From Dudresnaya verticillata (taxonomy: Eukaryota): 64,000 bases of DNA. Each line of letters starts with the position of its first letter. Position 1 is the stretch's first letter. Positions 6,236 through 58,784 of the stretch are shown here, piece after piece. The DNA is taken from NCBI GenBank assembly GCA_977862235.1, contig OZ374561.1, positions 1 through 64,000 on the forward strand, in the 5' to 3' direction. A model generated the notes under the pieces. It was not told the DNA's origin, searched no databases, and worked only from the letters and a program-made list of their open reading frames with translations. The position numbers and the translations under genes are program-made.

Positions 6236-6259
6236 TCAACCCTAATTCCAGCGAAACCA

Positions 6260-7330: not shown

Positions 7331-7689
7331 CGCTCTGTGCCTTCCACGCTCTGCCAGATGAGCGCCACATCATCCCGTTGACGCAACCGCCGCCGCCGCC
7401 GCCGCGCAAAAAAACGGCCCAAAAATTACAAATAATAAACGGTCATGACCGTTGCGTACCCTAAACCGGTGCCGCAGTGATCCGGTTCAGACACAATCTG
7501 ACCGTTCACTTAATCTGCCACCACACAGCCCACCACGCGTGCGACTGACCCCTCCTACTCCTCCTCCCTCACCACGCCTCTCTTACCCCATTAGCTCTAT
7601 ACCGCCTTGCTCCTCACCCGCCCGCACCAACCGCTCCCCTCTACCGCTACGCCTAAAGCGCTCGCTCACACCGTCATCGCTCTCCCGCC

Positions 7690-7960
7690 GGGCTGCGCGC
7701 TGTCTCTCGTTCTGTGCTGCCGTCGCGCTCCCGCTCGGTGCTGCGCTCGCCGCCGTCGCTCCTGGGCTGGGCTGTGCGCTGCTTTCTCGCTGTTGGCCTG
7801 TGCTGCGCTGTTGCATTGTGCTGCGCGCGACCCTTTTGTGCTCTACCGCCGTCGCTCCTGGGCCGTGCTGCGCGCTCTCTCTCGTTCTGTGCTGCCGTCG
7901 CGCTCCCGCTCGGTGCTGCGCTCGCCGCAGTCGCTCCTGGGCTGGGCTGTGCGCCGCTTC
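7690..7960. repeat. Direct duplication with a period of about 175 bp
   Basis: CTCTCGTTCTGTGCTGCCGTCGCGCTCCCGCTCGGTGCTGCGCTCGCCGC occurs near 7704 and near 7879. Confidence 0.85.
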
Positions 7961-21335: not shown

Positions 21336-22400
21336 CTGAAACTCGCCGTCGGGAGGCAGGCCTGCCCTTTCCGGTTCAATGTATTGGTAGGTGCCACGGG
21401 TATGAAATCTGCTTTCACATACAGTTTCGACACCACTGGCGGGAGAAAGCCGAAGCCCACGCAGCAAACCAAGCTCCCACACTGCTAAACCAAGCTATTC
21501 GACGCCCTTCCCAAAAGGCGACAAACGGCTTTGCCACGGTCTCGTCATGCAGCAGAGCCGTCAGACGGTTTCACACAGCCAGATTCGCTGCAATCTTGAC
21601 CAGCCCCAGTGCGGCTGCGTTGCCCATCGGTAGCGATGCGTGGGAGTATTTCTGGACTGGGGCGGGATTTGGTCGCGGCACAACAGCGCCGCTCCAGCGA
21701 CCCGCAACGGCGGCGACGATGTGCGGGCATCGTCGCGGGTGTCAGGTGGAGTTGGGAGCGTGGTGCGCAGGGGGGTTGTGCAGTGCACTTGACGGCGGTG
21801 ACCGTTGCAGATCTTGAGGCAGCCGGGCGTGGTGCGCATGGACAACAACACGTGTATGCAGCGGTCGTTGGAGGTGCGGGTGCTGCAGTCCGTTTCGAAA
21901 CTTTACAACTTTTCTGAACATATTGTAGCTTGCCCTAAACGATCGGAGATCAGTACTACAATGCGACGCCGGTAGGAGACTCCTCTCCACCCTACTATCG
22001 ACTGCGCGTGGAAACCAACCTCTACCCTCGCACTACCCTCACTCTCACCTCGCACTACCCAAGCTCCAACCTCAACCTACCCTGCTTCTTCTAACCTCGC
22101 GCTTTCCACCCCACTCTGGCGCGATCGACCCATCCTAGCGCGCGCGACCAACGTCCTTTTACCATTACCGCTTGCACCGTACGTCCGCGCGTTTTGCATT
22201 ACATCTTCCCCGACGACGGCGATATTACGATCACTCGCAACTGGCGCGCTCTGGTATTCGCGTTACGCTTGTTATCGTGTCAACACGTGCACACGGTGTG
22301 CACGTGTTGACACGAGAATGCGCGTAACACGAATACCAGGGTTGCCACGTGGACACGTATGCCTTGCATGCTTTCCGGAACCGTTTGCTGTTCTGCTTCC

Positions 22401-25400
22401 GCAGAAGCAGTAGAAGCACCGTGACAGCTTCCACAGTCGCGTCCCTGCGCGTCCCGCGGAAGCCGTCGCAACTCCACTACTCCTTCCGCAACGGATGCTT
22501 GCCTTGCCTCCACCTACTAACAGCTACCATCTGACCGCGGAAACAGTTGCCTATCTACATCTTTTTTCGCAACCATTAACTGTCATCTGCGCATTTGCTA
22601 ACACTCCCAGTCTGTCTGCGGAGCCCGTCGCAAACCTATAACTGCTTCCGCTGCATTCTCTCACTTCTCTAGCGCCTCGCGTCTTTCCGCAGATTCCGCA
22701 GCCGCCTCCACCATTGGTATCTTATACAACCTCCTTCTCCACCACCTCCTGCTCACCGTCCCGCGCTGCAACTTCGTTGCAGTTATTTACCCACTCCCGC
22801 GTCAAAAACTAACAATCATTCCTTTACTTCTATTCTCGCTTCACTTTACATATTCAAGGGACACACAGGTACGTGCTGGAGTCGCGTTCTTCACATTTCT
22901 ACAACCCAAAAACCTCCACAGCATAGCGACAAAACTCTAGAATTCCGGGGCACCATCCCGGTTTGTCTACGAGAAGTTCCTCGCAAAACTGTTGCAGTCC
23001 TGTGCATCTCCTGAATCTCTGCATTCCCGTATGCTTCTTCATCTCCTCCCTCCACCGCTGGTTGTTCCACATCATCAGGGCCAGTTGCATAGGCCTATAG
23101 AAGGGACACCGCTCCGAAGATCCATACTCGTTCTGCCCCCGCAGTGGACTACCGCTACCTACATGTGTCTTCTTCGAACCAAAGGTCTTCATCGAACATT
23201 CAGAACACCCGTTCGAAAAGAGCCCCCTCTTCGACTTCCAAGGCCGCATCCCGCACTGTGTGGCCCTGTGCCCTGACTTCATGCAGCGAAAGCACAGTCC
23301 AAAGCTACAGACTCTGCAATGCTCCTTCGACTTCACCGCTTCAAGTCCGGCTGCATCCCCGGGTCTCGAACGCCCCCAGCACGGCGCGCATACCGTTCCC
23401 AGCTTCATCGAGAGATCCCGTAATTCTTCCACCGCATCCATGGCTCCGCTCGCCGTCCGAACAGCAGCCACCACGCTGTCCTCCGGAGTACACTGTACGT
23501 CCAGACTCAACTCAGGTGCAGCTTGCCGCTGATTGCCCCCGCCCTCAGCTGGCAACAGCTCCCCACTCGAATCACTGTCGTCGGTATCTCCCGCCAGCTT
23601 CTCCAGGTGTATCTGCGTCGGACTCGCATACACACCCCCGGTCGAGGCCAAGAGTACCGACGAGGCCTCCTCCGGGACTGGAGCAGGCTTGGCACATACA
23701 TCGCACAACTGTACGGTCTCGTCTGGCAGTGTGGTCACACGCTCCGTACAGTTTCTCGGTACCTCCGGGCATCCCAGGTATTGCTCGATGGCCACACTTC
23801 GACACCGCCCCGTTTCTTCGGCCCATCTCTGGAATCGCTTAAGAGCCATCAGACCCTCCGTGTCCCTTACATTTGCACGGTCCCCAAACTCACGGTGGTA
23901 CAGTACACTCACAACCCCGCTCTTTCCATCCCTTCCAACCCGCCCGGCAACTTGGTACAGCTCCAACAGTGAACGGGTGCTCCCAACAATCACTGTCTTT
24001 GACACGTCAGGAGCATCAATTCCCGTCCCAAACCCTTCCGTAGCAATCATCACGCAAACGGTAAGCTCCCCCGCCCTCCCCCACTTCCACTGGGACACAC
24101 TCCGCCGCCGCGCAGTATCATTCATCCCACTGTTATACTTCGATATCACAACCCTCCGGGATGCTTTAAACTCTCTCCTCGCGCAAAGGGCTGCATGCAT
24201 ATCATCCGCTTCACCCTTAGTAAGTACACACACCAGAACCTTCCCCCCCGCGCGCTCGGAAAAGGCCAGGCGTACCCCTGCCATCACACTGTCATTAACA
24301 CACCCCATCACTTCTTCATCCTCCGCACTGGACAGCAGGTGCACACTGTACAGTACATTGTTCCGCCGCATGCTTCCACGAACAACCTCCGTGTCCCCAA
24401 CATTCGCACCACAGGCAGAAATTATCCTGTTCCCCATATGCACCGGGGCTGTGGCTGTCATCATTATCAGAGGGACACGCACGCGAGCCGGTCTCGCGTG
24501 ACGCATCCGTAACATGCACTCCCGATAGTGCGCGCTCAATAGGATAATGTGAGCCTCATCCACAACAACCCTCATCAACTTCTTGTTCTTGTGCAACACG
24601 CGCAGAGCAGCCTTGTATTTCGCCAAAGACACATGCTCTGGCGCGGCCAGGATTATACCTTTGCCGAATATTTCCATCTGTTCGTGATCATGGACGTCTT
24701 CGAAATCCAAAACGGGCAGCATGATGCTGTCGCACCGCTCTCTGATCTCCTCACGCAACGCACGAAGGGGGCATATGAAAACAGTCACCCCTTCCTCGCG
24801 CAATGCGGGCCCAAAAATAACCGCAGTCTTGCCAGCCCCCGTCCGAAGTACAATTAACGCGTCCCTCTCCCTCCTGACAACAACCCTCATTGCATCCTTC
24901 TGTTTCTCACTCTTGAACTCAGCCTCAGGATCTCCAACCGCTTCCTGGAGACACTCAACCAAACTCCATCGGGTCTCAGGTGACACGTCTTCATCAGACG
25001 ACGAATACTCTCCCCTCTCACTTTCCAGCCTCTCCTTCTCATTAATTTGACGAACGTCCTGTTCGTAAACATCCATTCTCTTTCCGATATCGGAAAGAAA
25101 CCCGACCAGCTTGCTTAAGAGCTCAGGGTCCCCCGCCTTCGGCTTCCCATCCCTCTCCTCACCCTCACTCCGTCGAAGACCATGAACGCCCTTCTCCGCA
25201 GCAGCAGCATTCACTGCGTTCACACCATCCCCCCCGCTCTGCCCCCGTCCCTCCCCTCTCTCTCCTTCCCACGCCACCCCTTCACTCACGCCCACGGTCA
25301 CCGCGTTCACATCCCTTGTCCCCGCCGCCGCACCCCGTTCTTCCGTTCTCTCTCCTTGCGACCCAGGCACTTCACTCGGGCCTGCTGCGCACCTCCCCCT

Positions 25401-40986: not shown

Positions 40987-41952
40987 TTACCCGCGTTGCG
41001 CGTCGTCGATGTTTGGCGGCAGGCGCGTGTGCTTCTGACGGTGATACCGCACAACGTGAGATCGCGGTAGACTGGACACTGGTTCCCAGGTATTCGCTGA
41101 AGCGGGGTATCCAAACCACTTGACGCGGTAGAGGATCTCGCCGTCTTCTGCGTGTTCGTGCGACTCAACCCGTTGGATAACGTACTCCGTCGCGCTTGTA
41201 GCGGTCGACGTGGGCTCCTGCCGTTCTAACGCCTGGGGCGGTTCAATGTGTTGCGTGATGGGCGTCTGCACCGGTTCTGCAAACCGTACTCGACGAGTCG
41301 ATCGCCTAAGGCGCTGGGTCGGTGCCCCGAGCGCTTGCGTAGCGGGTTGTGGTTCGTCGCTTTTGCGTACTGGTTCCTCGCTTCTACCGGCGTCCTTCGC
41401 GTTAGCGCGGTCTTCCTCATCGTCAGTCGATGCGCTCGAAGCGGGACCTACCTTGGTAGCCGGCGAAGCCAAGGTTGCGTGTCCCATTCGTGTACGGATG
41501 CCTGGACCCTCCTCCTCGTCGGAGACGGATTGCGATACACCGTCGTCGGGGTTAGCGGTGAAGGGCGAGAGCTCTGCAAACCCGCGACTTCGCGGCGTTG
41601 CATTCAGTCGCTCTTGCGAGTCGTCGGTGCTTCGCGGTGTCCCTTTGCCTCCTGCCGGGTCCGCCTGTGGCGTGTCTGGGGTTCCTGCTCCTTCGTCAGT
41701 TGACGTGGGGGCAGTGGGCCCCGGTACGTGAGGTGGTCCCGGTGGTTGCACGGTTGCGGGGGCGGTGTGCCCTGGTGGGGTTGGCGCCCATACCACGCGG
41801 TCCCGGGATAAACGTTCGCGTTCTCCGCGTCCCTTGTCGACGGTGACTGTCCCGTCGTCGACGTGAGTGACTCGATACGGTCCATCCGCCACAGGCGCGA
41901 GCTTGTGCGGTGCTCCCGCCCCGGGCGAAGTATTCCTTCCGCACGAATGCAA
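40987..41952 (-). CDS. Integrase C-terminal region with GPY/F motif and chromodomain (frameshifted from pol)
   Basis: KLAPVADGPYRV; EYVIQRVESHE...YRVKWFGYPASANTWEPVSSLP. Confidence 0.9.
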   Translation of the reverse strand: MHSCGRNTSPGAGAPHKLAPVADGPYRVTHVDDGTVTVDKGRGERERLSRDRVVWAPTPPGHTAPATVQPPGPPHVPGPTAPTSTDEGAGTPDTPQADPAGGKGTPRSTDDSQERLNATPRSRGFAELSPFTANPDDGVSQSVSDEEEGPGIRTRMGHATLASPATKVGPASSASTDDEEDRANAKDAGRSEEPVRKSDEPQPATQALGAPTQRLRRSTRRVRFAEPVQTPITQHIEPPQALERQEPTSTATSATEYVIQRVESHEHAEDGEILYRVKWFGYPASANTWEPVSSLPRSHVVRYHRQKHTRLPPNIDDAQRG

Positions 41953-44569
41953 AGTCGCCCACAGCGATGTTCTCCTTCGATTTCCGCAGACGAGTATCGA
42001 AGTTCCGTTTGTAACGCGCCTGCGTTTTCACGAGCGACGCTTTAGCGGTTCCCATCAATGCGGACAGCCAGGTTCGCCATTTGGTGTAGTACTGTCCGGC
42101 AGTGGGCACGCTTTCGAGCGACGGCTCGGCTTCCAGCGACAAGGGCCGCGGGGGCTTAGATAGAACCAGCTCGAATGGAGCGAGGTTGGTGGACGAGTGC
42201 AGTTGCGTATTGTACGCGAACGTCAGAGCATCGGTGAAAAAATCCCAGTCCCTGGGGTGGTCTGCTACGTAGTGACGCAGGGAGGCGAGGATGGTTCGAT
42301 TGAATCGTTCCACTTGGCCGTTACACTGCGGATAGTACATAGTAGTGAAGAGATTCTCCACCCCTAAGATACGGCAGACGTCCTGGAACAACTTGGCTAC
42401 AAATTGCGGCCCATTATCGGACAGTAGCTTCTTGGGTGGGCCATACACCAACACCCAGTGTCGAACAAACGCCTGAGCGATTTCCAATGCCGTAATCTTA
42501 CGTAAGGGAACCGTCCGGACCAGCTTCGAGAAGCGGTATACGATGACGAGTAGAAACTTATTCCCCCGCTTAGTGCGTATGAGCTCCCCGAGTATATCGA
42601 TGGGCACAAACTCGAGAGGCTCGGTTGCTGCGAACAGTTTCATCTCCTTCACGTTCTTTCGCATCAGTACCCGGTTCTTCGCGCAAGTAACGCAATTGCG
42701 GACGGTCGCGTAACAATCCACCGACATAGACGACCAATAATACTCACGTCGAAGCGTATGGTATAGCTTCCGTCCTCCGGGATGTCCTGCTAATTTAGCA
42801 TGATGTCGGAGATGGAGCAATCTAACGCGTAACGCGAATGGTACAACGACTTGGGGTCGGGCCTCGACGGTCCGAACCAATAGTCCTTGTTCGTGCGTTG
42901 CAAACGGTGGGTTGTCCCCGTCATCTAGACGTTTCCGGATCTCGGAACAGTACGGGTCACTGCTCTGAGCATGCACCAACTCTCCATGCGTCAATTGACG
43001 GAGGAGCACTTCGTCCGCCGGTGGCGCGTTTGTAACCAACATCTGGTCAAACTCCTCGAAGTCTCGTTCGGAGAAATCGACTTCGCCCTTGGCGTTTGAC
43101 GTATCGCTTTTTGCGTGAGCGTAGCCGTCTTCTGACGAGTGATCCTCGTCTTTGACGCAACTTCCGTGGTAACACGGGATATCATCGTCGATCGGTTCGA
43201 CCGTTTCGCCGTTCGTCTGTAGACGTGAGAGGGCATCTGCCTGAGTATTCAGGTATCCCTTTTTATACTTCACGACGAAGTCGAACTCAGAGAGGCGAAG
43301 GCGCCATCTCATTAAACGTCCCGAGGGGTCGCTGATTTCCATGAGCCACCTCAATGACGAATGATCCGTATGGACTACGAAGGACTCCATCTGAAGGTAC
43401 GGTCTCAACGTCGTGATGGACCAGACTACTGCTAGGCATTCCTTTTCGGATACCGAGTAGTTGCGCTCCGGAGCGGTTAACGAGCGTGACCAGAAGCCAA
43501 GCGGCTTCCGTTCGCCGTCAGGCTGCGTTTGAAAGAGTGCACAGCCAACTTGGTATTCGCTCGCGTCACAATCAACGGAGTACGGGAGTCCTTGCTGCGG
43601 CAACGCCAGGATGGGCGGGTGAGTCACCGCTTCGACAAGCGTGCGGAATGCCCGAGCTTGTTCCTCGGTGAACGGTTGTAACCGGAAGTCTTGCTCTTTC
43701 CTCAACAATTTGTTGAGGGGAGCGGCGACGTGCGCGTATCGCGATACAAACCGTCTGTAGACGTTGCACAATCCGAGAAAGCTCCGTAATTCCTTCTGGT
43801 CCCGCGGATGCTTGGCTTGGCGTAACGCGGCTGTGACCGTACGGTCTACTTCCAATCGTCCCGGACGTATCACATGGCCTAAATAGTTGACGGTCGGGGT
43901 GAAGAAGTCGCATTTGGTTAACTTCAATGTCAACCCGGCCCGAGGCAAGGTCGAAAGGATCTCGTCAACATGACGGAAGTGACTGTCAATATCGTTCGAG
44001 AAGATGATCACATCGTCAAGGTAGACGAGGCATGAGCGCCACTTGTAACCAGCAAGCAGGATATCGAGGGTCCGTTGAAACGTGGCCGGTGCGTTAGTAA
44101 GTCCGAAGGGCATACGCTTGTAGCGGAACAATCCGGCATGGCACTTGAACGCGGTCTTGTCGCGATCTCGCGGATTTATGGGCACCTGCCAGTAACCACT
44201 ATTGCAGTCTAGGGTGGTGAAGACGTTCGCTTCCCCTAGGCTGTCAATACATTCGTCGATTCGCGGGAGAGGGTACGTATCTCGTACCGTTACCATGTTC
44301 AAGCGACGGTAGTCAACGCAGAAGCGGAGTGTACCGTCCTTCTTGGGAGCAAAGACGACCGGCGACGCCCATGGCGATTGTGCGGGTTCGATAACCCCCT
44401 GACGCAACATGCGATCCACCTCCGCTTGAGCGAGTTGCCTTTGCTTTGGGCCAGCGCGGTAAGGCGGGGATGAAATCGGCCTGGAGCCGGGGAGCAAGTC
44501 AATATAGTGCTCCGTGGTTGCGATTTCTCCTAATGAACCGTCCCACATCGACGAGTACCTGCGCAGCAT
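41696..44569 (-). CDS. Gypsy pol: reverse transcriptase, RNase H, integrase
   Basis: LRFCVDYRRLN, MPFGLTNAPATFQ, YLDD, DCDASEY, HHCC Zn finger (H..LAGHPG..CVTC), SDNGPQF, NGQVERFNRT. Confidence 0.96.
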   Translation of the reverse strand: MLRRYSSMWDGSLGEIATTEHYIDLLPGSRPISSPPYRAGPKQRQLAQAEVDRMLRQGVIEPAQSPWASPVVFAPKKDGTLRFCVDYRRLNMVTVRDTYPLPRIDECIDSLGEANVFTTLDCNSGYWQVPINPRDRDKTAFKCHAGLFRYKRMPFGLTNAPATFQRTLDILLAGYKWRSCLVYLDDVIIFSNDIDSHFRHVDEILSTLPRAGLTLKLTKCDFFTPTVNYLGHVIRPGRLEVDRTVTAALRQAKHPRDQKELRSFLGLCNVYRRFVSRYAHVAAPLNKLLRKEQDFRLQPFTEEQARAFRTLVEAVTHPPILALPQQGLPYSVDCDASEYQVGCALFQTQPDGERKPLGFWSRSLTAPERNYSVSEKECLAVVWSITTLRPYLQMESFVVHTDHSSLRWLMEISDPSGRLMRWRLRLSEFDFVVKYKKGYLNTQADALSRLQTNGETVEPIDDDIPCYHGSCVKDEDHSSEDGYAHAKSDTSNAKGEVDFSERDFEEFDQMLVTNAPPADEVLLRQLTHGELVHAQSSDPYCSEIRKRLDDGDNPPFATHEQGLLVRTVEARPQVVVPFALRVRLLHLRHHAKLAGHPGGRKLYHTLRREYYWSSMSVDCYATVRNCVTCAKNRVLMRKNVKEMKLFAATEPLEFVPIDILGELIRTKRGNKFLLVIVYRFSKLVRTVPLRKITALEIAQAFVRHWVLVYGPPKKLLSDNGPQFVAKLFQDVCRILGVENLFTTMYYPQCNGQVERFNRTILASLRHYVADHPRDWDFFTDALTFAYNTQLHSSTNLAPFELVLSKPPRPLSLEAEPSLESVPTAGQYYTKWRTWLSALMGTAKASLVKTQARYKRNFDTRLRKSKENIAVGDFAFVRKEYFARGGSTAQARACGGWTVSSHSRRRRDSHRRQGTRRTRTFIPGPRGMGANPTRAHRPRNRATTGTTSRTGAHCPHVN

Positions 44570-44590
44570 CTCCTTCAGCCGTCCTTGATG

Positions 44591-46135
44591 TTAGGCTGAG
44601 AGATGACTCAGATCCAACTCGTCCACTGACGGAGGTTTAGCTACAGTTGCTTCGATCGACTTAGCGAATGTATCCGGCTGCGCCGTTACCCCATCGTTCG
44701 TTTGAAAACGGAAATCTTGATTTGCTTCCTCCTCCGTTGCCTGCTCCTCGGTGATACCTAGGACATCGGCCAGATTTATGTGACTGGGGAACACTGCTGT
44801 GGGATGTGGCAACGCGGTAGCGACGACTTGTCCTTTGACGAGCGCTTGCGGGCGCGGGGAGAAGTTTGCGACGAGAATCCGGAACACTCTCAGCGGCTCT
44901 ACTTGAGCGACTCCGTTAGTAGCGGCCAAAGCTTGCCGATCATATAACGTTCCAAACGGTTGGATCGTAATGACCCCTGGTCGCTCGGTCGTTACCGAGA
45001 TCCACTTTTGCGCCTGCGGCGGGATGATCGTTCGTTCCGCAACGCGTATCTTGGGCGACGTTCGCCCTTCGGCCGTGCCGTACTCTTGTTCCGTTGGAAA
45101 CGGGGGGTACGACGGGGGCCGGTGCAGCGGGCGGCGCGTTATAGGGACACGGGTCCCGTCGTCCAGCTCAATCTCGCGACTCCGCGGATAAACCGCTTCG
45201 ACAAAGCGGTCGCAAACGTCGCAACCGAGTATAACCGGCGCAGCGAGCCGTTCACAGACGATCAACTCCAACTTGACGACCCTTCGTCCGAGACGTACGA
45301 CTAAGATGATAGTGCCCCGGGTCTGAATCGCCTTGTTGTTAGCGTCTGATATGACGGGGAGACTCTTGGATACGATCCGTGATCGCGCTTCTAGTGGAAT
45401 ATCGTCAATTCGGATGAAATTCGGACCAGCCCCCGTGTCGAGGACAGTGAGTTTACGTGCCAAGGTACCTACAGATACGTCTAGATCAGCGTATACTTTG
45501 TAGTTCCTTTTGGCCATTACGAACAACTGTCCCCGGGCTTGTGGGGGCTGGTACCTACGCCAGGGGCGCTTCAAGGACGTCTGTGACGAGTCTACCCGCC
45601 CATCGGCGTATTTGTTAACTAAGTTCGGGCCCTCCTCCCGTGTCAGCACCCGAGGCGGAAGCCTCTCTGCTTGGTGCGACACCCCAGTGTCAGGAGTTGG
45701 TACCCTCATTACTTTTTCGCCTGCGGCGGTTGTGGCGGCGCTGTGTAGCGATTGACCACTGTCGGATGACGTTCTGCTGCATGCGGCATAGGTCCGCCTC
45801 GTGGTGACGGCGGTCGCGCTGCACGGCGTGCTGCTTCGCGCGCGTTCCTTGTACCGAGTGTACGCATCGGCGGGGACCCCCGCCTTCTCGGCGTCTGTTA
45901 AGCCTTCGTAGTTGGCGATCGCTTTCATATACTCGCTCATGCGGAGGAAGCAGTCCGGTGCGATGTGGCCACGGGCATAACACTGATGACAGATCAACTG
46001 TCTGCGAGCGTCTTGACGGAGCGGACCCCTGTCTTCCCAACCTGGCCTCACCCGATGGAAGTGGGGGGCATACTCCGAGTACGGGACGCGTGGCGCGGGC
46101 ACGACGGAACGCCCAAAGACGAGTGTAGGATCCAT
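44591..46135 (-). CDS. Gypsy gag C-terminus (CCHC knuckle) and aspartic protease; separated from pol by one in-frame TAA
   Basis: CHQCYARGHIAPDC; VLDTGAGPNFI; the 21-nt gap to pol keeps the frame. Confidence 0.9.
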   Translation of the reverse strand: MDPTLVFGRSVVPAPRVPYSEYAPHFHRVRPGWEDRGPLRQDARRQLICHQCYARGHIAPDCFLRMSEYMKAIANYEGLTDAEKAGVPADAYTRYKERARSSTPCSATAVTTRRTYAACSRTSSDSGQSLHSAATTAAGEKVMRVPTPDTGVSHQAERLPPRVLTREEGPNLVNKYADGRVDSSQTSLKRPWRRYQPPQARGQLFVMAKRNYKVYADLDVSVGTLARKLTVLDTGAGPNFIRIDDIPLEARSRIVSKSLPVISDANNKAIQTRGTIILVVRLGRRVVKLELIVCERLAAPVILGCDVCDRFVEAVYPRSREIELDDGTRVPITRRPLHRPPSYPPFPTEQEYGTAEGRTSPKIRVAERTIIPPQAQKWISVTTERPGVITIQPFGTLYDRQALAATNGVAQVEPLRVFRILVANFSPRPQALVKGQVVATALPHPTAVFPSHINLADVLGITEEQATEEEANQDFRFQTNDGVTAQPDTFAKSIEATVAKPPSVDELDLSHLSA

Positions 46136-46882
46136 TGCCTCTGTGTCCTCATCTTCGACGTAGCTAACACTAATTTCGCCGGCTACAGAATTTCCAAAAC
46201 AGAACAGAATTTTTTGAGGGTCCTTGAATCCAGGCGTTCGATAGCGCGTTGGAAAGGGGCGCTACCCTGAGAACAGTGGTGCAAACAGATCGGAGCAAAC
46301 GCTAATAGTTTCGGAGTTATGCGCTCCGGTATATGGCCCCCCCGGGGTCGAAAGTTCCCGAAACTTGTGATTTTTCCGAAAAGTTCCAATTAAAAATTCT
46401 CCAGAAATTGATTCTGGCCCGTCCCGCCGCCCGCGCCCCCGCCCCCCGACCGCACACCGCATTCTGGCGACTTCCCGCCGCATTCCGACGCGCTCGGACT
46501 TGGCTTCCCACCGCATTCCGACGTGCGCTCGGCCACCTCCCCACGTCCGACAGCCACTCCCACCATCACCCTTCCTGGTGCTGCTACTGGCCCACGCATT
46601 CCGCATTCTGGCGCGTGCGCACACGCTCTGCTTCTGCCTTGCGCGTAATGAGGCGCGCTTCCCCACCCCCTCCCAGACCCGTAGTGCCGCTCCCCGCCCC
46701 AGTCCGGCCTGTGACCGCACTCTGTCTCACGCTCCCTGCCGTTCACCGACACCTCGCCGTCACCCTTCCCCACGCTCCTGCGCACCGCGCCCTGCCGCAT
46801 TCTGACACGTCCACATCAAGTTGCCGCATTCAGGCGCACGGTCAGCCCCTCGCAGCAGTCCCCCGACACGCCTCCTTCACCC

Positions 46883-47045
46883 CTACCCCGCTCCCGTGCG
46901 GCACGGCCACCCGCATTCTGACCCGTCCTCACAACTGGGCCCACTACCCGCCCGACCTGGTACCACTACCAGGTAGCTCAGCCGCTTGCGCACCCGCGGT
47001 TCGGACTTAACTTGTGGCGTAGACGGGCGCTACAGGCGTCGAATG
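46883..47045 (+). repeat. Left arm of a ~160-bp inverted repeat (TIR); it may extend further left toward about 46165
   Basis: CTACCCCGCTCCCGTGCGGCACGGCCACCCGCATTCTGACCCG...CTACAGGCGTCGA is the reverse complement of 58626-58784 with few mismatches. Confidence 0.92.
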
Positions 47046-47112
47046 GCCTTGCATTTCTCGTGTGCTGCATCAACCTGAGAGTAGAATTTACTGGTTGTAG
47101 CTGTTTCTCGTA

Positions 47113-50088
47113 TCAAGAGCCGGCATACCTAACTAACAACGGCGATTCTCTGATTCTCTTCTGGACGAGCTGCGGTAGACGTCTCTTCGTAAGAGCTTCG
47201 AATTCGACCATTACAGTCGCGACGCCGACAGTACCAGTCCATGGCTGCTTAGTCGCTGAGTATATGGATGCCTTGCACTTTCCGTCCCAAGCACCCTTTC
47301 CGTCATACGCCTCGTACCATCTTATATACAGCTCAGTAGCCTTTCCCGTAGCGTCCTGCACAACATCTATAATCTGTCCAACCCAAAATGGGCATCGTGC
47401 GGTGGCGTTCTCCCTCACAACGACAAAGAAGTAGTTCTTCGTGTACTGCAGGTCTGAAGAGGCGGTCACAGTCTCCTCCTCACCGTCATCCCCTTCCGGT
47501 ACGTACTCCAGCGCCGCTCTTCCGCTGTACTTTCCCCTTGTCTCAAATATGCGTCCCATATCCCAGTGAAACGTTTCCAGCCTATCTCTGTACACGTGGT
47601 CACGCAATTCCTGCAGCTCCCTCATCTTTCCCGTGTCATTCACAGGTGTCTCTTCAGAACGAAACCTGTCTTTGACTTCCTTCAAATCTGGCGGCGATTT
47701 GACCACTGTTGCTGGAGTCTTGCCAAGGCCAGGAGGGGATAGTACGAACCCCTTATGCTCTCCTCCTGTCTGCAACGGAACCCAGTCATCCGCGCATGTC
47801 ATTCTAAATTGAAAGCCTGTCACAAAAGCTGCAACAGATTCTGCCTCTTCCGTCGCAGCTGGACCCACACGGTGGAATCTGAAATAGCGATAGGTCGTGA
47901 ATGCCTCAACATTACCAATGCATCCTTCCTGTCGACACAGGCCTGAGAAATTCGCAATTTGAAGCATGCGACTGACAACTGGTTCTGGACTGTACGACTG
48001 CCGAAGCTCTTCCATCAATTCAGTCATTGTGACTGCGTCCCGAACTTTAAGCCGGCGTGCCGTGCACGAAAAGGCCTGATCTATATCTGTGTGAGTGTGC
48101 CCGACGGGCAGGAAAGACACGAAGACCTCTTGGAACACACCCCATGCAACGAGACTCTCCAGGTATGAGAACAAAAAGATATTTTTGTTCTCTCTCGAAC
48201 AGTTGTCTACTTGTAGAAATAAAGTCCCTTGTAGCTCTCCTCTGGACTGTTTGTCCGAAAGCGTTCTGTGCAACGCCTCGATAATGTGGTTCGCGCCGGT
48301 CTCGAACTCACCGGTCATTGTGTACAAGTGCAGACGCTTCTCAGCCCTGTGTTCAAGCACCCCAATAAGTTTCGCTTTCATGGCATGCCCAATGCTGGCT
48401 TTGGACGACACCACAAAATGTGGAAGTCCAAATGCGGACTGATCAGCACCATCCACTATGAGGGAGCAATACTCCTGCGGCAATAGTATCGCCTTCTCAT
48501 ATTTTTCTGATATTCACGTCTCTCTGCCTGTATGAATTTCAAGTGAATGTTGCGCCGCTCATGCAGGTGTTCAGTGCCTGCTCCAGAGGTCCCTGCCTGA
48601 GCAAGTCGCTCGCGAATGAGTTCGCATTCACTGCACTTTGCAAATCGGTGTGTCTTTCGCACCTTAATGCGGGAGCAGCTGTGTTTCCATACAAAGTAAA
48701 AGTAACTCTGACACGGAATTTCCCTGTTTCTGTACAGCCTGGTGTGGTCCAATTTGAACATGTCATACACAACTGATTTCTGAAAGTAGGGGAGGTGCGA
48801 CTCCCCATTATCGGGCATTGGTTCAGCAGTGCTGTCTGCAAGACGTTCAAGGAAGCAAATGATACTATCCTGCTGATGGGATGAGGTATCACGCCTCGCA
48901 TTGTTTGGGAGCTGCAGCTTCTGGGACTGCCTCGTGCCTTTTACAGAGGTCTGTAAGTCACGGGAGAATCCAAAGGCCTGCTCCAAAAAGTTGTAGCAGA
49001 CAGGCTGACGGTTGAAAAGTATTTCATCTTGGTCGTGTCCAACAGATTGCGAAGATACGTTCGCCTTGCTTCTACGTTCATTCCGGCAATTCTGCGCGCC
49101 TCCGCCTTTAAGTGCACTTGCTCTACACTTTGGAAGCATTTGTTCCCGATGCAGCATCTCATTGACTGCGTGTTTGCGCGTTCCAAGTCTTGGAACAGGT
49201 GCCTACGTCTCTTCTGAAGACTTCCTCTCCCACTGAATGTCTGCTGCTTTCTCTTCCTGTAAGTATATTTTCGCTTCGTCCTGACCTGCACCTTATGAAA
49301 AGGGTCATATGCGTCGTCATCACTTTCCGACACGTGTCGTACGGCGTCCGCATCATCATGGTTGGCCTCCCTCAAATGCTCTCGCGGTTCTCTCAATTCC
49401 TCACTGCTCGGAGCATTGCCAGGCGGGGGTGTTGTTCGAATTGACCGCGCTGCGGCATCCGCTTGCGGCCCCGCACTTTGTTGGAGGGGTGATGCTGGCC
49501 TTGTCGTGTCAACTGGTGTCATCTGCTGGGGCGATGCGGTAGGGGCCACCGCTGCGGCATTGTGTTCTGCAGTTGACGTAGGGGGGCAATTGCTCAGTAA
49601 ATTCTGCGACGAACTATGCCCTGTCGTGGAGAGTACAACCGTCTCTGGCACAACGGTGCGATTTCTCGATTGCCGAGCTCCTGAATGTAGTTCACATCCC
49701 ATGCATGAAAACCCCCACCCATCTCCCCAAGTGTGTGCGGAACGGAGTCCGTTGTCTTGTACTTGTATTTGTACTGAAGTTTCTCATACGGTTGCATGAT
49801 TTGTGCTCGGTAAACCACAACCAGCTTCTCCCCTTTTTTCTGACTGGGAGACAATTTGTGGCCATGCAGGGTGACACAATACCTGCCAGACTGGTCCGCG
49901 TCCTCTTTTGTCCCCGGTCTCTTGACAATAGCAGTGCCGACCATTTCCCTGTCATACAGAAGAGCAACATGCCCTTCGTCGCGCGCGTTGCCTCCTCCTT
50001 TTGCTTCATTTTCTCGCTCAGCGCAATCCGTACTTGACGGGCTCATTTCCATCTCGTTCAAACTGTCCTTCCGCGATGACATCTGCAC
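47113..50088 (-). pseudogene. DDE-type transposase (Sola-like / GHTHxDID family), about 990 codons in four frameshifted pieces
   Basis: ORFs 49594..50088, 48941..49702, 48456..49157 and 47113..48483 tile one gene. Motifs: FAKCSEC..H, LIVDGADQ, LQVDNCSRENKN, FLPVGHTHTDIDQAFS. The family assignment is from motif recall only. Confidence 0.75.
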
Positions 50089-51019
50089 ACAGCTTGTGAG
50101 ACTGCCACTCGTTCTGTCTTCCCTTCACGCTCTAAGCAGAACGCCCGCTTTGCAGTCTATTAAGGCACCTGCCTGACCTGGCCGGGAGGCGCAGCCCTTC
50201 GCAGCAAAACGCTTGCGCATTAAATACCCTCTGTGATACCGCGGCGCGCCGCCTGTTGCCTGCTCTTGAGGCTTCACACCCGTGGAGCGGCACGAGTGGC
50301 TGCACGAGGTGCATCTGGGTTATTCTGCAACCCAGATTCTGTTTGTGATCAGATTCTGGTTCTGCACTTGGCCAATTACATTTCAGGACAAGTCTCCACG
50401 TGCATGCGGAGCCACACAAGCTGCAGCTTCTGGGAGGCGGACACATACAGCTGACGGTCTCCGCAGCTTCGGAGAGGCGCTCTCTCAGCTGCTTTGCGAT
50501 TCGATATGCGCGGTCATATGCTTCCCTGTAGCCCTCATTGCACGCCTTTGCTGCATACGCGCCCAACCCGTTGCCTCCTTCCTTGAAATAGTCTTGCGGT
50601 CCAATAACAGGGGCGCCCCATGCACATGCACTGCAGGAATGTTCAACGATTGGAAATCAGGGACTCAACGCTTCAGCCCCCAGTCTCCTGCTCCGGCTGC
50701 ACCAACCCCATCTACCTCAACTCTGCGTCGTTTCCCAGCACAGCTCGAGTATTATTTCGCGTTGTCAGCCAAGGCACCGATTTCATCCACATCTTCGCCC
50801 TGCGTTCCAGACCCATCAACAACGCGCGTTGCTCCCCTTCCCTGTAACCACTTGTCAGCACCAGCCGCCCTCAGCGCTGACTCAATATGCATCTCCTTCA
50901 TCCAAAAGCCGAGGACCCTGTCCAACCCACCAACAATGGGCTCTTCCTCATTTCCAGAGTACATGAGTACAGAAAGCCCGTGCTTCCCGAATCACCCGGC
51001 TCTGCCCACTCGGTGGCGG

Positions 51020-51450
51020 CAAAGTGCAACATCTCCCCGAGCGATGCCTACGGCCGCCGATGGATGCCTCCGGTTATTCCTGGCAATGCAGCACTGACAT
51101 TTGAGATTGAGGTTGCAGACTTCAAGGGCGGCGGATGCGAAGATGTCAAGAAAGTCACAGAGTTCAATCCTGAGGTGGCCAGGACTCCAACTGAAATTGC
51201 CACAGAATATGATGCCGGACTTGAAACGCAAGAGGAGCGAAGGAAGAACATGTCCTTGCTAGAACGCTTTTACCTCATGAGCCCATTTGCCAGCCGAACG
51301 GGAGAACGCCCGCCTTGGTGGATCAATCCGATTATTACTTTCGTTGCAATCGCGGTGTTCTGTGTACTTGACTTCTATCCCGTTGTTGTTGCAGGTGGCA
51401 TTCATGTGGGCTATGTTGATCAGCCTGTGTATGTGACCATCTTTAAATAG
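51020..51450 (+). pseudogene. C-terminal fragment of an FKBP-type peptidyl-prolyl isomerase with a membrane tail
   Basis: AKCNISPSDAYGRRWMPPVIPGNAALTFEIEVADF matches the FKBP C-terminal signature (AYGxxGxPxxIPxNxxLxFEVEL). The N-terminal half is missing; a hydrophobic segment follows PPWWINP. Confidence 0.8.
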
Positions 51451-51799
51451 CCTTGCTTTTTCACTGCTTTACTCCATGTAAACACTGTGCTAACTTCGGG
51501 TTGACAGAGAATGAAAATGCGTTTGGGCAAGGTAATGGTAACAATCGGGTGAGAAAGAAATCACCCGAGAAAACCCAGCGCCTAAATCACTCAGTGCGAG
51601 GTCATGGGTTGATAACTCTCGCGCGACCTCGAGAAGCATTTTGCGACCGAATGCTTGTCTCCTGGGAGCATTCCAGCCTTCTGCCTCCTCTGTGAATCTT
51701 TCAAATCTGAGACGCTGCCCGGTCGCACACCCCGTGTCACCACGTATTACGCTTTCATCGAAGTAAGCGTTTAGAATTTGTTTTCGGGACTGGGAATGT

Positions 51800-52950
51800 G
51801 TTCTGTAGACTGAAATATCATTCTCGAAACGTCCTGGGCGGAGACGTGCATCATCCAGAAGGTCTAGGGGTCGCGTCTTCCCCGCAAGAAAACAGGCTCA
51901 TCCCAAGAATGGTTGTTGGTGCCGTCTATTTCGGTGAGAAATGTTCCCAGAATGCGATTGAATGCTTCAGAAGCGGATTCCTCATCAGTGCAACCTACAG
52001 ATGCACGACCACGACTCGGAGAGAGAAAATCGACATTCTCAATGACGACGACTGTTTAGAGTATGGCCCTCGCTGTAGCGAACAGTTCTGATAGCCGTAT
52101 CTCACCATCGCCGACAATGCTGCTTGTAATAGATGTGCCTTCAACGCATGGATTGTTTATGCTCCCATGGGTAACTGTCTGCGACGCCAGTCGCGCGATT
52201 GCGTACTTTCCAGATCCTGTTGCACCATAACAGATTAAACACTTCCATATCCCTAGCGTTTGCAATGCTTCCTGGCTGCTATCAGTCGAAGGGGGCCACT
52301 CCGAGCCCGAAGCACTGTTGTCAGACATTCCTGAAATTGTTTGATTGGCGATTCCAAGCCATGAAAGGCCTTGATAGACTCAGGATCAAAACTTTCGTCG
52401 GCTGGGGTTCCTTTCACGACCGACCGCAAGGCTGCCTTTGTCATTTTCAAGGAGTCCCAAAACTACGGAGCAGAAAGAAGGTCATGCGGTTCGAACGAGG
52501 AATTCCTCGCTTAAGAATTGATCGTTGGTCTTCCCCAGGCTTGTTCCAGTGTAGAGAACAAACTTGTCATGTCGCCATGCATGAACCCAGGTCTAACGAC
52601 GGCAACACCCTGTTGATTACGTGTAGTAGTAATAAAGACTACAGGGATATGGCTTTCGTCATGCAATGCGGAAAGCTCTTCACGGAGTGCAGCAAAGAAT
52701 TAGTGCGCTTAAGCGAAAGTCACGGGATGACAGAAGTTTGGCTGGTGCCCATACGTCGAGCACATCAATAAGGATTGCAACTGGGAAACAAGCAGTACTC
52801 AGCATAGACTCATTACCAAACATATCGTTCTCAAGACCAACAGCTTCCGAGAAAGGTTCCGAAATAGCACCTCCTATGAACCCAGCATCATCAACTGCTA
52901 CAACTCTTGGACACGAGCACACTATCCAAACGCCGGCGAAACGTGCCCCT
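51800..52950 (-). pseudogene. Decayed AAA+ ATPase (CDC48/AFG2/PEX-like double-AAA) fragment
   Basis: Manual read-through: LICYGATGSGKYAIAR (Walker A), TSITSSIVGDGEIRLSELFATARAIL*TVVVIENVDFLSPSR (Walker B region), NRILGTFLTEIDG. The upstream ILIDVLDVWAP resembles a first-domain Walker B. Confidence 0.8.
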
Positions 52951-54375
52951 TGTATAGCAAGTGTACTCTTCCTTGATGCGGACGTCTTTCATGCGGCAGT
53001 CCAGAGCGCTTGAATGGCTAGAGGTGACCTGCGTACCGCTTGTAGAATGCCATTGAGTTCTGGACACGATAACGGAATGATGAATATGAATAGCAAGCGA
53101 GGGCTATGGGAGCATCTGAGAGACGTGCGGTTGACTAACACGACGATCACGGCTCGCATTTAAACGTTTTCGGTTCGGGAAGGGGTTGGGAACAATAATA
53201 CCATGATGACCATGATGACAGGCTGAATGATGGCAGGCTGAATTATGGTTTTCAAGGCAAGCGAGAATTTTCGTGTCAGAAGCGAACGTAGGACGGTAAG
53301 CAGGCAGGCAAACACAACGGCGGTATTACGCAGCGGAGAGGAAGGGGAGTGGAGGAGGATACCGTGAGTGATGGATTCGCGGAGCGGGAAAATCGCGGCA
53401 AGGGTAAGGGCGTTTGTGAGGCAGTGTGTTGTGGAAGGCGTATTTGTGTCCGCATTCTGGGCAATCATCTCGTGAGCTCGCAGCGCCGAGGCCAGATAGA
53501 TTGTGGAGTTTGCGGGCTCTCAGGACCTGTTCCCTGATACTGATATTGCACTTTGGGCTCCTGCGTTGCCGTGAAGCGCAATATCTGTTCTCATAGCAAT
53601 GTGACTTGGCCGCATTCAGAAGCTGTAAAGGTGTTGACGGCGGCCCAATGGAAAGACCCTTTTACAAGCTTATTCAATATCATTGGACAGAAAATCTATA
53701 CAGGTTTTTCAGCGCGCATTTTGCCACATCAAATGAACAGCTATTTGGCCCGGTTCTCTCGCCCCACCTGTTCCCTGATACTGATATTGCACCCACAGGT
53801 GTTGACACCTCCCACCCCCGAGAACCTGTTCCTCGTAAATTGACCGCCGCGGCCCCCGCTGGCACGCCGCTGACAACTGTGCGCCAGTACTCACCGAAAC
53901 CGTGTGTGGCATGCTATTTTACTCGCAGTATCAGCACCTGGCCAGGCCGGCCTCAACTTCAAAGCCCGGTCAAGTCGGCTGGGACAGCGAGCAGCATGCC
54001 CTAATTGACTTTGTTACATCTCGCCGTGCAGGTCCGGTGAAACCTGCATTCTACCAATTCCAACTGTACGGCCTGTGCTAAGAATAGTTCTGATGGAGAC
54101 TGCCCAAACCCGGTGAACAATCCACGTGACCTCCCGTGCCATCTCAGAATTTGCGGTACATCCATGTCGTACTCCTGCCGTCCAGTGTGTCGAAAGCCCG
54201 TATGGTGTCAGTCGAAAACGGCACCCTGCAAACATGAGCCGGGGACGTAAAGAATTTCTTGCGGAAGGTTTTCTGAACAGAATCTGGACAACTCATCGGA
54301 CATGCAGTACCCCTTTCCGTACTCTTTCAAGGAGAGCGGTTTTCACGTGCACAGTGAGTCTTTCTCTCGCACACC

Positions 54376-57300
54376 ATGTCGAAGCGCAAGAAGCGGAGCA
54401 GGGGGTCAAGTGAGCCGTTGAGGAAGGAGGAGATGGCACAGGCACTGTTTGGAGATGTCATGGAGGGGTCTAACAACATTCGAATAGACCCCAGGTCCTG
54501 TGTTCCGATGACTGATATAAGGGACATCTCGAGATCCGGTGTTGAGAGGCTCAAGAAGATTTTCAGGGTTGGTGGGACGAGGAGCGCTAACTACAACAAC
54601 GGGTACATTGCCGGTTCCGATGCGCCCATACTGGTTCGCCTAACAGGTCCCTTCAGGAGTTTCATTTTTGAGTTTCTCCGAGCTAAACGGAATGTGGATG
54701 GGACAGAGTACACAGAGAAACAGGTGAAAGAAGAGGCCTCCAGTCGGTCGGAGTGGTTCGGAGTTGTTGATGGCATGCATCGACTTATCGCCATTATGGA
54801 GCTAATCGATGAAGACCGGGAGACATGGAAGGGGTTTGCTTTGACTGCCACTGTGCTTAAAGGGGGGCACAACATCCAGATTCTGAAGCAACTGGCTCGT
54901 CATCAGAACAGAAAGCACGACTCCAGCTTTTTTTTAGAAACCACGTTTTACGATCAGATATGCGGTCTTAGGAAAGAGGCAGACCGTCTCGAATCCAGTA
55001 ATGGGAAGACTCCGACTGCGACGGCAGTTGCCGAAGCATATGATGGATGCAGTCACCTATCGGAAAACACTATCAAACAGACAGCGGCAACCGTTCTTCG
55101 TCTTGACCGTCGCGTTATAGATGCAATTGGGAAGATAATGAAGGAGGAGGTCCCTGAACTAGCAACTATGCAACTGTTGACTGCTTCCGGAAAGGCCATA
55201 GACGCAAATGTCGCGATGCAGAATCTGGATTGCAGAGTATACAGACGCTTCATTCACGTCAGTTCCATCAAGTCTTCCAAGGCCTTTATGAATGCAGGCA
55301 GCTCTGACAACGGCATTACTGTTCAAATAGCTACCCTGTACAGGCTCCGAGAGGTGTCAAGGACACACAATTTCAAACCTGTTTCGGCCAAACACACGCA
55401 AGAGCAATTCTTGAAAGCTTCAGCCGCCCTTTCCGAGACTCGGAAGTTTGAAGCGATGAGGGAGAGGACAGAATGGCCTTCAGGCATGAGTACATTAAGA
55501 GAAAACCTGTTACACACTACGAAGCTGGACGTCGAGGTCATCATAAATCGAGGTAATTACTGTACACTGTTGAAAACAATAGTTGAGATGTACAGAGAGT
55601 GTTGTCCGGAAGAGGCCCCAGTGAAGTTGCAGAAGTACAAAGATCTGCAAACTGTGATGGATTCGACAGAAGGCAGACGTGATGATGCTGTCATGACCCG
55701 CCCGGGTTCCGATGAATGTGGAGCAAAAGGTTCTGACGGTCAACAGAATTTGGACTGCACGTTGTCACCGCAGGTGGACGCTACCGGAATCTCTAGCGAC
55801 GAAGAGGGTTTAGACTTAGTAACATCAACCAATTCGAAAAGGGAAGAAGGTCGCGAACCAGCAGAATCTGGACAGGCACCCGTCCAGAACGTAGACCCTA
55901 AAGCTGCATGTGCAGCCAAAAACCTTTCTGTACCGGAAAAGAGTCCCACAGACCCCACTGTATCAACTGTTTCATCAAAGCAGTCTGTTCGCCTCAACAT
56001 GGGTACTAAGGCTGTGCCGGTGGAGGACGGATTGCTTTCTGTTCCAATAGATTATCTTGCGGAAATGAAACTGACATGCTTTCAGATGACATGGCAGAGC
56101 TACGATAGTACCGTAAGGAAGGAAGGTGACAAACGATTCGATTTAATCCTCACTGATCCACCATACGGTACACCGAAATCGCAGTCTAAGTCGGGGAGGT
56201 CATTCGATAATTACCTCAGCGAGGAAGACATTAAGAAGATAGTTGAGTTCTCGAGGCGCGTACTTGTAGCAGGGGGTGGTTGTTTGTTTTCATGTCATTC
56301 CTGAACTTCAGTGTATTCCACGATGCTCTGAAGAAGGCACAATTAATGTGCCCATCATACCCATTCATATTCTCCAAAGACCCCAAGACCATGCAGGAAC
56401 ATCGGGGGAGCGATATGCCCAGAACTGTGTGGAAATAGCCGTCATGGAGCGTGCCCCAGGTCAGCATGGCGGAGGGTTCTTGCTCGACCTCAGGAGCGAG
56501 TATCACTGCATCCCCTCCCCAGAAAAGCGGAAATTCGCGTGCATGTCCTCTCTACCAACACCGAAACACAAGTTGCTACGCCCAGGCACCAAGTACCCAG
56601 TTCTGGTCGAGGAGAAGTCTCCCGAAGTACTTGTGGAGATAATGTCAACATTCTGTCCGGATGGCGGGTCAGTTCTGGATATGCACAGCGGAACCATGAC
56701 GACTGGGATTGCAGCTCTCAGAATAGATCGTCGGTGTACACTAATCGAATCACAGGTCGAAACATTCAAGCTGGGGGCTGAACGTTTGCGTAGGCTTGCC
56801 ACGGAAGCATATGAAATGAAGACAGGTCGTAAACGTTTGGAATCAAGTGCTCATGACGAACTGAATGGTATCGGTGAGGCAGCAAGAGGTAGTGTTGTCA
56901 AAACAGATTCTGCTCCACCAACAAACCATTCCGTAAAGAGGAAGGGACCTGAAATGTCCCATCTGACGACACCGTCCGAGCACGTATTGGATGACCCCGA
57001 AGAGAGTATCGAGAAGCACGGCAGGAGTGAAGAAAAAGTTGTAGGAAGTGTGGAGAAAAGTGAAAAGTGCAGGAGAAGGAAAAAACCTGAACCTTGTGCA
57101 ATGCCCAAGGCCGGAGACAGAGTCACGCTTCTTGCAGATGATAAGGAAGTGGGGGAGGCCGTGTTGCATCCTGAAAAGACTCCAGGAGGGAACTGGAATG
57201 AACGCTTGCACGGCCACGATCTGTCAGAATCTGCCAAACCAGGGGAGCATCTTGTGGTCGTCTACAGTTTGAAGATCATGGCGGAGTATGAGCTAAGTTC

Positions 57301-57406
57301 GTATCCGTATATATTTAAGGGAGTAAAGGACCCTCCTGCCAATCTCAAGGGCCTAAACGGCTTGTTGTTCTCGTGGGACTTACACAACATGAAGAAGATT
57401 GGGTAG
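54376..57406 (+). pseudogene. ParB/Srx-like domain fused to a beta-class DNA amino-methyltransferase (N6-adenine or N4-cytosine) and a C-terminal transposase-associated domain; two frameshifts
   Basis: GVVDGMHRL; FDLILTDPPYG (motif IV, 56155); RRVLVAGG then +1 frame WLFVFMSF...; EKSPEVLVEIMSTFCPDGGSVLDMHSGTMTTGIAALRIDRRCTLIE (motif X-I). The frameshifts lie at or near G-runs around 56275 and 56405. Confidence 0.85.
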
Positions 57407-57914
57407 GAATTATAGTCAGTACAGTACTATTGTCATAGGCCGAATTGAACATTTCTCGAGCATCCGTATTCTGAACATGTCTTTGCGTCTTGCTTCCGCC
57501 ATGGTCCATGAATTCGACGTCGTTCAGGCACCATTTACTCGAATAACGCCAGTGCTTCCACATGCCGTACTATGAACGCGGGGGTTATATTTGGTCCACC
57601 AAACAGAATCTGTCACGGAAGGCTGTCGCGAGTGTGGCACATGTACCGTACTGCTGCAGCTGCTGGCAACGTTGCGGCATATTGGCAGTAAGTGATTGAT
57701 CCACTACGTACCGGAGTGCGCCCAGGGCTGTCTCCAACGCATATGAAATGGAAACCCGTCAGCTCGTGGAAAGATGGACCATGTATTGCCCAGGCACGCA
57801 GTGATCCTGTCGCAGGTGAAGGCCTCGGCCATTTCGGAAAGAGAGCTGAGATGAAACGAAGTGTTCGTTCACCACCATAATCTGCTGTGACCAGAATACC
57901 GCTGTATTGAGACC

Positions 57915-58337
57915 ATGGATGACTTGATTCTGGATGTGGAAAAGCTGTACAACGCCGTTAAACGTCGGATGGAGGAAGATCTTAATCGTGAGGCACGAAA
58001 ATGGACGCACCAAAGCCCTAGCAGTGACGACGACATTCTGGACAACCACAATGACCTGGATCGTGCCCAAATGGCTTGGGAATCATCACAGCAATTTTAC
58101 GCAGACAAGACGATGATGGAGCATTCCCACCATCAGAAAGCTTTGGACAAGCTGTACAGGTTGTTGCTGAACAAAATCTTTCTCGTGGGAAGGGGCAAGT
58201 ACGTGCACGGTGCAGCCCATGCTATAGACTTCGCGATCGTCGAAACGCTGCACAGGGGCGGAGAGAACGCGTATCAACTGGGTCGCTACACACGTCTGCT
58301 TTGCACAAATTCTACATGCCCAATAGCCGCGCAATGA
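57915..58337 (+). other. Possible coding fragment of unknown identity inside the transposon
   Basis: 140-aa ORF with protein-like composition and no recognised motif. Confidence 0.3.
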
Positions 58338-58625
58338 AACCGGAGGTGAGGATGTGCATCATGAGGAGCCTGAACAATGAACTGTCTAGTTGTGAAGGGC
58401 TGTATATGCGGAAGCATGATAGCAGCGATTGCTAACGTTAGAGATAGTAAAGTGGTGGCCTTCTCCCATGAGCACAGCAATGCGCTTCATTCCATTTGGC
58501 GGCCTACAATCGGGGATGTGCCCCATTGAAGTATGGCATGGTCCTCAGCTGCGGTGCAATAAACGCGGCGCAGACAACAGAATGCAATGGGGTCAGGCTG
58601 GCATTGTGCAGAACCGCAAGGGAAA

Positions 58626-58784
58626 TCGACGCCTGTAGCGTCAGTCTACGCCACAATTTAAGTCCGAACCGCGGGTGCGCAAGTGGCTTAGCTACCTGGT
58701 AGTGTACCAGGTCGGACGGGTAGTGGGCCCAGTTGTGAGGACGGGTCAGAATGCGGGTGGCCGTGCCGCACGGGAGCGGGGTAG
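58626..58784 (-). repeat. Right arm of the inverted repeat, abutting a gypsy LTR
   Basis: Reverse complement of 46883-47045; the similarity stops exactly at the TGTAGTGCA LTR terminus at 58785. Confidence 0.92.

Follow-up and report, generated by a model that had tools for sequence, protein, structure and literature searches.

Does a transposon that carries a DNA amino-methyltransferase gene use it to mark its own DNA? This question was raised by a window of 64,000 nucleotides, the whole stretch analyzed here (Dudresnaya verticillata, contig OZ374561.1, positions 1 to 64,000), in which an 11.9-kb element at 46883-58784 carries, between inverted repeats, a transposase gene and a divergent accessory gene that encodes a ParB-like region together with a methyltransferase (MTase). 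Close to certain are the inverted repeats, the two genes with their respective folds, and the repeated linkage of the pair in relatives. The best overall explanation, to which we assign a probability of about 0.5, is that this is a Sola-like transposon whose accessory gene marks the element's own DNA by ParB-targeted methylation.

Repeats, transposase, and accessory protein

The left terminal inverted repeat (TIR; 46883..47058, plus strand, 176 bp) and the right one (58610..58784, minus strand) aligned in a self-BLAST over 176 nt with 93% identity (E = 5e-70), and their outer 81 nt are 99% complementary. This alignment, together with the gene positions, confirmed a sequence-only reading of the locus in which inverted repeats enclosed a transposase and a divergent gene. 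Each repeat holds two short palindromes (46894-46906 and 46955-46974 on the left, with their counterparts at 58694-58712 and 58761-58773 on the right) against 0.2-0.3 expected, a number reached in 2-3 of 100 shuffles.

The transposase gene (47113..50082, minus strand, with an inferred start at 50082) spans about 990 codons in four frames and matches Pfam DUF7869 with an E value of 3.9e-47. Its acidic residues are all aspartates, located in IVDGADQ (48453), QVDNC (48207), and GHTHxDID (48087) with the spacing D-82-D-40-D, and the same triad is found in 170 of 185 transposase cores; thus, the enzyme is of the DDD type rather than the DDE type that had been proposed from the sequence alone. Sola transposases, reportedly described by Bao and colleagues in 2009, are said to have a DDD catalytic triad, and the element shares with Sola1 both this triad and TIRs. 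We infer that the transposase is Sola-like and that DUF7869 corresponds to Sola, an equation set by these features and not by a curated Sola1 sequence; the name DUF7869 was absent from the literature searched. The protein matches 129 others, the best at about 50% identity, including proteins of Pylaiella and Saccoglossus.

The accessory gene (54376..57406, plus strand) runs divergently from the transposase gene over about 1,010 codons in three frames, and its product is ordered as ParB-N, helix-turn-helix (HTH), and helical region, acidic linker, beta-class amino-MTase, and a tail of about 100 aa. ParB went undetected by Pfam, PHROGs, and a PDB sequence search, so that weak DndB matches and the fold alone reveal it in the N-terminal region (54430..55659, plus strand, with DGMHR at 54769-54783). 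The window's own N-terminal 410 residues were modeled with a predicted local distance difference test score (pLDDT) of 93.7; a Foldseek comparison retrieved Noc, ParB, and KorB (best E = 7e-4), and the model was superimposed on a pNOB8-like ParB with a Z score of 8.9 and a root-mean-square deviation (rmsd) of 4.5 over 214 aligned residues. These models support a ParB fold for the region, in line with the ParB-like motif noted earlier.

The MTase domain (56060..56830, plus strand) has motif IV, DPPY (56155-56166), ahead of motif I, DMHSGT (from 56678), the latter lying within VLDMHSGTMTT at 56672-56704; these coordinates bear out the motifs and their order as given in the sequence-only reading. 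DPPY and motif I stand in different frames, separated by two frameshifts (~56274 and ~56419) that fall in a G run (56272-56276) and a C run (56418-56420). The fold was modeled on an intact homolog, P0002 (mean pLDDT 53.8, higher across much of the MTase domain), and CcrM, M1.HpyAVI, M.BceJIV, and M.MboIIA ranked first among its matches, with N4-cytosine enzymes slightly lower (E = 1.7e-11 for CcrM; Z 18.7, rmsd 3.8, and 188 aligned residues for M1.HpyAVI). The structural matches support a beta-class N6-adenine/N4-cytosine fold with motif IV before motif I, as the earlier assignment to this class had it. DPPY points to N6-adenine, and N4-cytosine remains compatible. The accessory protein has 13 close homologs at 28-53% identity, several of them intact (850-1,010 aa), and 9 of the 11 close homologs that are full-length retain DPPY (about 40-55% overall identity).

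Both genes of this copy are broken by frame changes, two in the MTase and three in the transposase (near 49650, 49016, and 48504). Each shift is of the kind that the loss of a single base would give, and no stop was found in any aligned segment of either gene. The four breaks that can be located coincide with homopolymers of 5 G, 3 C, 4 A, and 5 T, whereas runs of three or more bases hold 15% of the coding bases. One-base shortfalls in homopolymer runs, together with the lack of stops, suggest that the breaks are probably errors of long-read assembly or consensus rather than decay, and thus that the copy may be intact.

The two proteins likely have a domain in common. The beta-rich tail of the MTase protein (57107..57394, plus strand; about 100 aa, no Pfam match) is 38% identical over 102 aa (E = 7e-19) to a domain just upstream of the transposase core (49681..49977, minus strand), which would form the N terminus of the transposase, and an intact transposase, P0115, has the domain at residues 11-109. 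The P0115 copy makes it likely that both proteins of the element share the domain, which was present in that 1 of the 120 listed transposase homologs in a search that excluded proteins longer than 816 aa; a search for longer proteins with the domain found none, which is weak evidence. No profile match was seen at the N termini of the transposases of loci L084 and L085, a poor test, as MTase columns dominated the profile. A structural match to 4zn3, of SH3/KOW-like type (Z 4.7, rmsd 3.5, 62 aligned), is weak and serves as a lead only. An identity as a Tnp1/En/Spm-like domain was also considered and is unsupported, there being no Pfam match.

Linkage in relatives

The linkage of the two genes was examined in a metagenome contig scan with the transposase, using the best 80 of the 486 relatives that the scan yielded. 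A ParB/MTase profile match lay beside the transposase at 9 of these 80 loci (two of them, L020 and L024, 97.8% alike), and at 8 of the 12 whose flanks reach at least 3 kb. The sequence-only reading had staked its case on the pair being linked elsewhere, and the linkage does recur; the enclosing repeats that it also asked for were seen in none of the fetched loci, whose contigs are short. The idea that the MTase is an incidental capture of a single-copy host gene is rejected in view of this linkage. The divergent orientation of the window is repeated in L007, L009, L018, L020, L024, and L040, while the genes are in tandem on the same strand in L033 and convergent in L034 and L063. Three further pairs are indicated indirectly by equal-sized contigs (9936, 10330, and 8109). 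Scans with the MTase alignment returned no locus in metagenome or viral contigs, and neither did a transposase scan of viral contigs.

Linked loci are scattered across the transposase tree. Pairwise identities of the ParB-N region and of the transposase core were correlated among 8 pairs (Spearman rho 0.78; as high in 8 of 5040 permutations), comprising the window, four loci, and the three pairs deduced from contig size; five other linked loci, which were near-duplicates, incomplete, or split, were excluded. In distant members the accessory gene takes other forms, with MTase plus SET domains in L033, L034, and L063 and, in L024 (708-4283, minus strand), an OTU-like protease fused ahead of ParB and an MTase with DPPW, divergent from a DUF7869 transposase. 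These SET and OTU domains suggest chromatin as the arena of action.

Other features were recorded at the relatives. At L018, an open reading frame (ORF) at 3-1091 (minus strand) follows the ParB-MTase gene; it gave no Pfam hit, and its end carries a motif that we take to resemble the start of a sirtuin. L084 has tandem palindromic units of about 50 bp at 4504-4825, immediately upstream of a DUF7869 transposase gene that is intact (965 aa) and whose 6 kb of flank hold no MTase. A broken DUF7869 gene was found at 8900-10570 of L086, a 733-kb contig of a bacterial metagenome-assembled genome (MAG), in repeat-rich, eukaryote-like surroundings; this contig is likely contamination.

Proposed self-marking and its alternatives

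In the explanation that we prefer, the transposase would cut and paste the element at its repeats, the accessory protein would load onto repeated sites of the element through its ParB/HTH region, and the beta-class MTase would deposit N6-methyladenine (6mA) on nearby adenines of the element's own DNA, a mark that would probably keep the element expressed or transposable against host silencing. Several eukaryotes are described as having 6mA on expressed genes and 5-methylcytosine on transposons, red algae being unmentioned in the accessible part of that source (PMC12695648). Candidate binding sites are provided by CCGCATTCTG-like motifs, eight of which lie at 46457..46920 (plus strand), running from outside the left end into the left repeat, with two more ahead of the accessory gene, at 53450 and 53610, and one in the right repeat; the window holds 14 matches against 5.1 expected for this motif, which was picked post hoc. 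We lean towards catalytic activity in the window's clade. If the enzyme is active, its mark is probably 6mA rather than N4-methylcytosine (4mC), and that the mark acts on the element itself, in its favor, is about an even call.

Several observations weigh against this explanation. A profile search with the accessory protein gave 262 representatives at E ≤ 1e-30, and among the best 150 of these, a canonical motif IV ([DNS]PP[YFW]) was present in only 27 of the 91 non-redundant relatives that cover the site and DGxHR in 33 of 93, while 29 of the 54 that cover both had neither; motif I was matched in 54 of 89. Some of the noncanonical relatives may be decayed copies or misaligned, but the repeated occurrence of an EPPx variant hints at a branch without activity. 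With 27 of 91 canonical, methylation is likely for the window's clade and not in general. Motif I of this copy has His where most relatives have Tyr or Phe, and the two linked relatives that belong to the same transposase clade as the window lend no support: motif IV of L007 is TAIP, and L009 is truncated before it. The MTase gene is also dispensable for the transposase family, since no ParB/MTase neighbor was found in 4 of the 12 long metagenome loci (L004, L008, L051, and L065) or in any of 11 genome-collection loci, which are mostly short MAG contigs and likely eukaryotic contamination. The distance correlation may partly reflect host kinship, and, as noted above, no fetched locus displayed repeats around both genes.

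The ends of the element raise similar doubts. Sola1 is described, in the accessible text of PMC3845634, with a target site duplication (TSD) of 4 bp, often AWWT. Here, no duplication of 3 nt or more flanked the repeats at any symmetric boundary, and CACCC or ACCC recurred only when the right end was shifted 10-11 nt outward. With no TSD and a motif array that continues to 46457, the outer repeat ends are perhaps not the true termini and the true left end perhaps lies further out; the true ends may have been lost, and whether the array at 46457-46920 belongs to the element is uncertain. Outside the TIRs, no palindrome array beyond chance was found in the element.

Alternatively, the accessory protein could be mainly a DNA-binding scaffold, with methylation secondary or lost, the ParB clamp and MTase-fold module binding the element and recruiting the transposase (through the shared domain) or host chromatin factors. 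Such a role would suit the 64 of 91 relatives without a canonical motif IV, of which at least 19 have EPPx and many are still long open frames, and it would give a use to one domain placed at both the MTase C terminus and the transposase N terminus. We nevertheless regard it as rather unlikely, since DPPY is retained in the window's clade, the distant L018 and L024 keep DPPF and DPPW, and the shared domain turned up in a single listed transposase homolog. An enzyme that is active could also work in the opposite sense, by restraining or timing transposition or by giving target immunity through the marking of existing copies. Dam methylation restrains or times IS10/Tn5 transposition. The anatomy and linkage of the element also fit this role, as do candidate motifs at the element ends and ahead of the accessory gene, but in red algae, elements with related genes underwent a strong expansion that their authors, in the accessible part of the preprint, read as an advantage (bioRxiv 10.1101/2025.02.11.637652), and we consider restraint quite unlikely.

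Last, the MTase gene might be a mere passenger, or a cassette with a mobility of its own that enters large transposons, and in either case be of no help to them. In the available text of the same preprint, PAG genes of red algae are described as moving among Plavaka, Mutator, Zisupton, and Fanzor elements, the orientation of the gene pair varies among loci, and the element also holds the C-terminal part of an FKBP-type prolyl-isomerase with a hydrophobic tail, in the spacer at 50881..51450 (plus strand; FKBP_C E = 0.0022, and E = 7e-5 in a second search), likely captured host DNA. A passenger is nonetheless improbable, given that the divergence of one gene correlates with that of the other, that their linkage is spread over the transposase tree, and that the two proteins have a domain in common. 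Self-marking might also be extended into a broader picture, which we offer as a doubtful conjecture, in which a Sola-like lineage across unrelated eukaryotes has long carried a ParB-clamp-targeted chromatin writer with swappable amino-MTase, SET, and OTU modules, with, in the window's clade, the shared domain serving for docking and self-specific 6mA licensing the transpososome, and with this copy being intact.

Surroundings, known systems, and significance

Between the MTase gene and the right repeat lies a 148-codon ORF (57891-58337, plus strand) with no family match. The observed/expected ratio of CpG is 0.86 within the element versus 1.2-1.26 in both flanks, and TpG/CpA is raised. Directly left of the element is a Gypsy-type retroelement (41000-46261), for which no matching long terminal repeat (LTR) pair was found in the regions compared; insertion of the transposon into an LTR is thus not supported. 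The window begins with a telomere array of about 1.27 kb (1-1270) made of CCCCTAAA (TTTAGGGG) units, which resemble TTTTTAGGGG of Bostrychia; 115 of 155 units are perfect, and the other 40 vary in run length, owing either to noise in the reads or to slippage of the telomerase. A palindrome of about 32 bp (CCGGCCTCGATTGCAA..TTGCAATCGAGGCCGG type) then recurs at 1583-16244 in at least 26 dispersed copies, which run through a 1,454-aa ORF without a Pfam match and a gene for a zinc-finger and SF2 helicase protein (8958-14867, one in-frame stop); the region resembles a telomere-linked helicase element in which candidate binding sites abound. A second zinc-finger and SF2 helicase gene (22902-29098, two frames) lies within 22400-30000, which has a dispersed hairpin-like repeat family of its own; a tandem array of 21-bp type comes next, at 30039-30523. 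The genes are intron-free. The telomere repeat marks the DNA as eukaryotic and, taken with the algal precedents and the absence of introns, suggests a seaweed host.

The sequence-only reading had presented the element as an unusual transposon-borne module, which overstated its novelty. In Ectocarpus, Sola1-1_Ec32 is described with an opposite-strand gene for a ParB-like and N4mC/N6mA methyltransferase protein and with a self-marking hypothesis, and the ParB-methyltransferase accessory class was proposed in 2025 (PMC12477816, accessible text). Both are large Sola-type elements with long imperfect TIRs, inside which ParB and MTase are combined in one protein (about 1,000-1,100 aa there) encoded on the strand opposite the transposase. 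Sola1-1_Ec32 is 21.5 kb long with a 282-bp TIR, AACCG..CGGTT termini, and a 4-bp TSD, whereas the present element has 11.9 kb, a 176-bp TIR, and CTACC..GGTAG termini, and no TSD was found; the two were compared by layout. The available sections of PMC12477816 do not mention the shared tail and N-terminal domain.

Red seaweed Plavaka elements, in the part of Petroll et al. that is accessible (bioRxiv 10.1101/2025.02.11.637652), carry PAG2, a PF01555 methylase with SET, and PAG3, which is ParB-like. That system resembles ours in its transposon-borne methylase and ParB-like domain, and L033, L034, and L063 likewise combine MTase with SET. It differs in that separate genes encode ParB and the methylase, a 2-oxoglutarate oxygenase is joined to ParB, and the transposase is of the EnSpm/Plavaka type, whereas here one protein unites ParB and MTase beside a DUF7869 DDD transposase; no SET or oxygenase domain was detected in the element, which therefore lacks the marks of a Plavaka PAG cassette. 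Table 6 of that preprint, on curated elements, may already include Sola elements of red algae that carry genes of this kind. Epigenetic modification by transposons of their own DNA is rare, and VANDAL is the one example given in the accessible text of the preprint.

Phage proteins with ParB-N and N6_N4 methyltransferase domains occur at ParB-terminase loci (PMC4738411, as far as accessible) in the same domain order as here and are 400-510 aa long. ParB_N plus N6_N4_Mtase phage clusters were Atlas look-alikes at 0.86-0.88, under the 0.9 bar, phage MTases were 24-27% identical to the MTase domain, and no phage record covered 80% of the query. In bdelloid rotifers, N4CMT is likewise a eukaryotic beta-class amino-MTase whose origin is bacterial (PDB 8s9m/8s9n/8s9o; Z 16.0). 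Its gene is a host gene that has been domesticated and is not known as transposon cargo; the protein has SPPY together with a chromodomain and marks transposons so that they are silenced.

A 2025 description of the same design from brown and red algae makes the element a further example and not a new system. What is added here is a possibly intact compact copy, the shared domain, the SET/OTU variants, and the catalytic census; in the literature searched, which did not extend to subscription journals or Repbase reports, we did not find the shared domain, the correlated divergence, or the census. The evidence indicates that the pairing of transposase and accessory gene is old and widespread. This compact, possibly intact element, together with a clade of intact DPPY homologs, makes the self-methylation idea assayable, and, if the enzyme is active, it would be a self-targeting writer and a source of non-AMT1 6mA or of 4mC in eukaryotic genomes.

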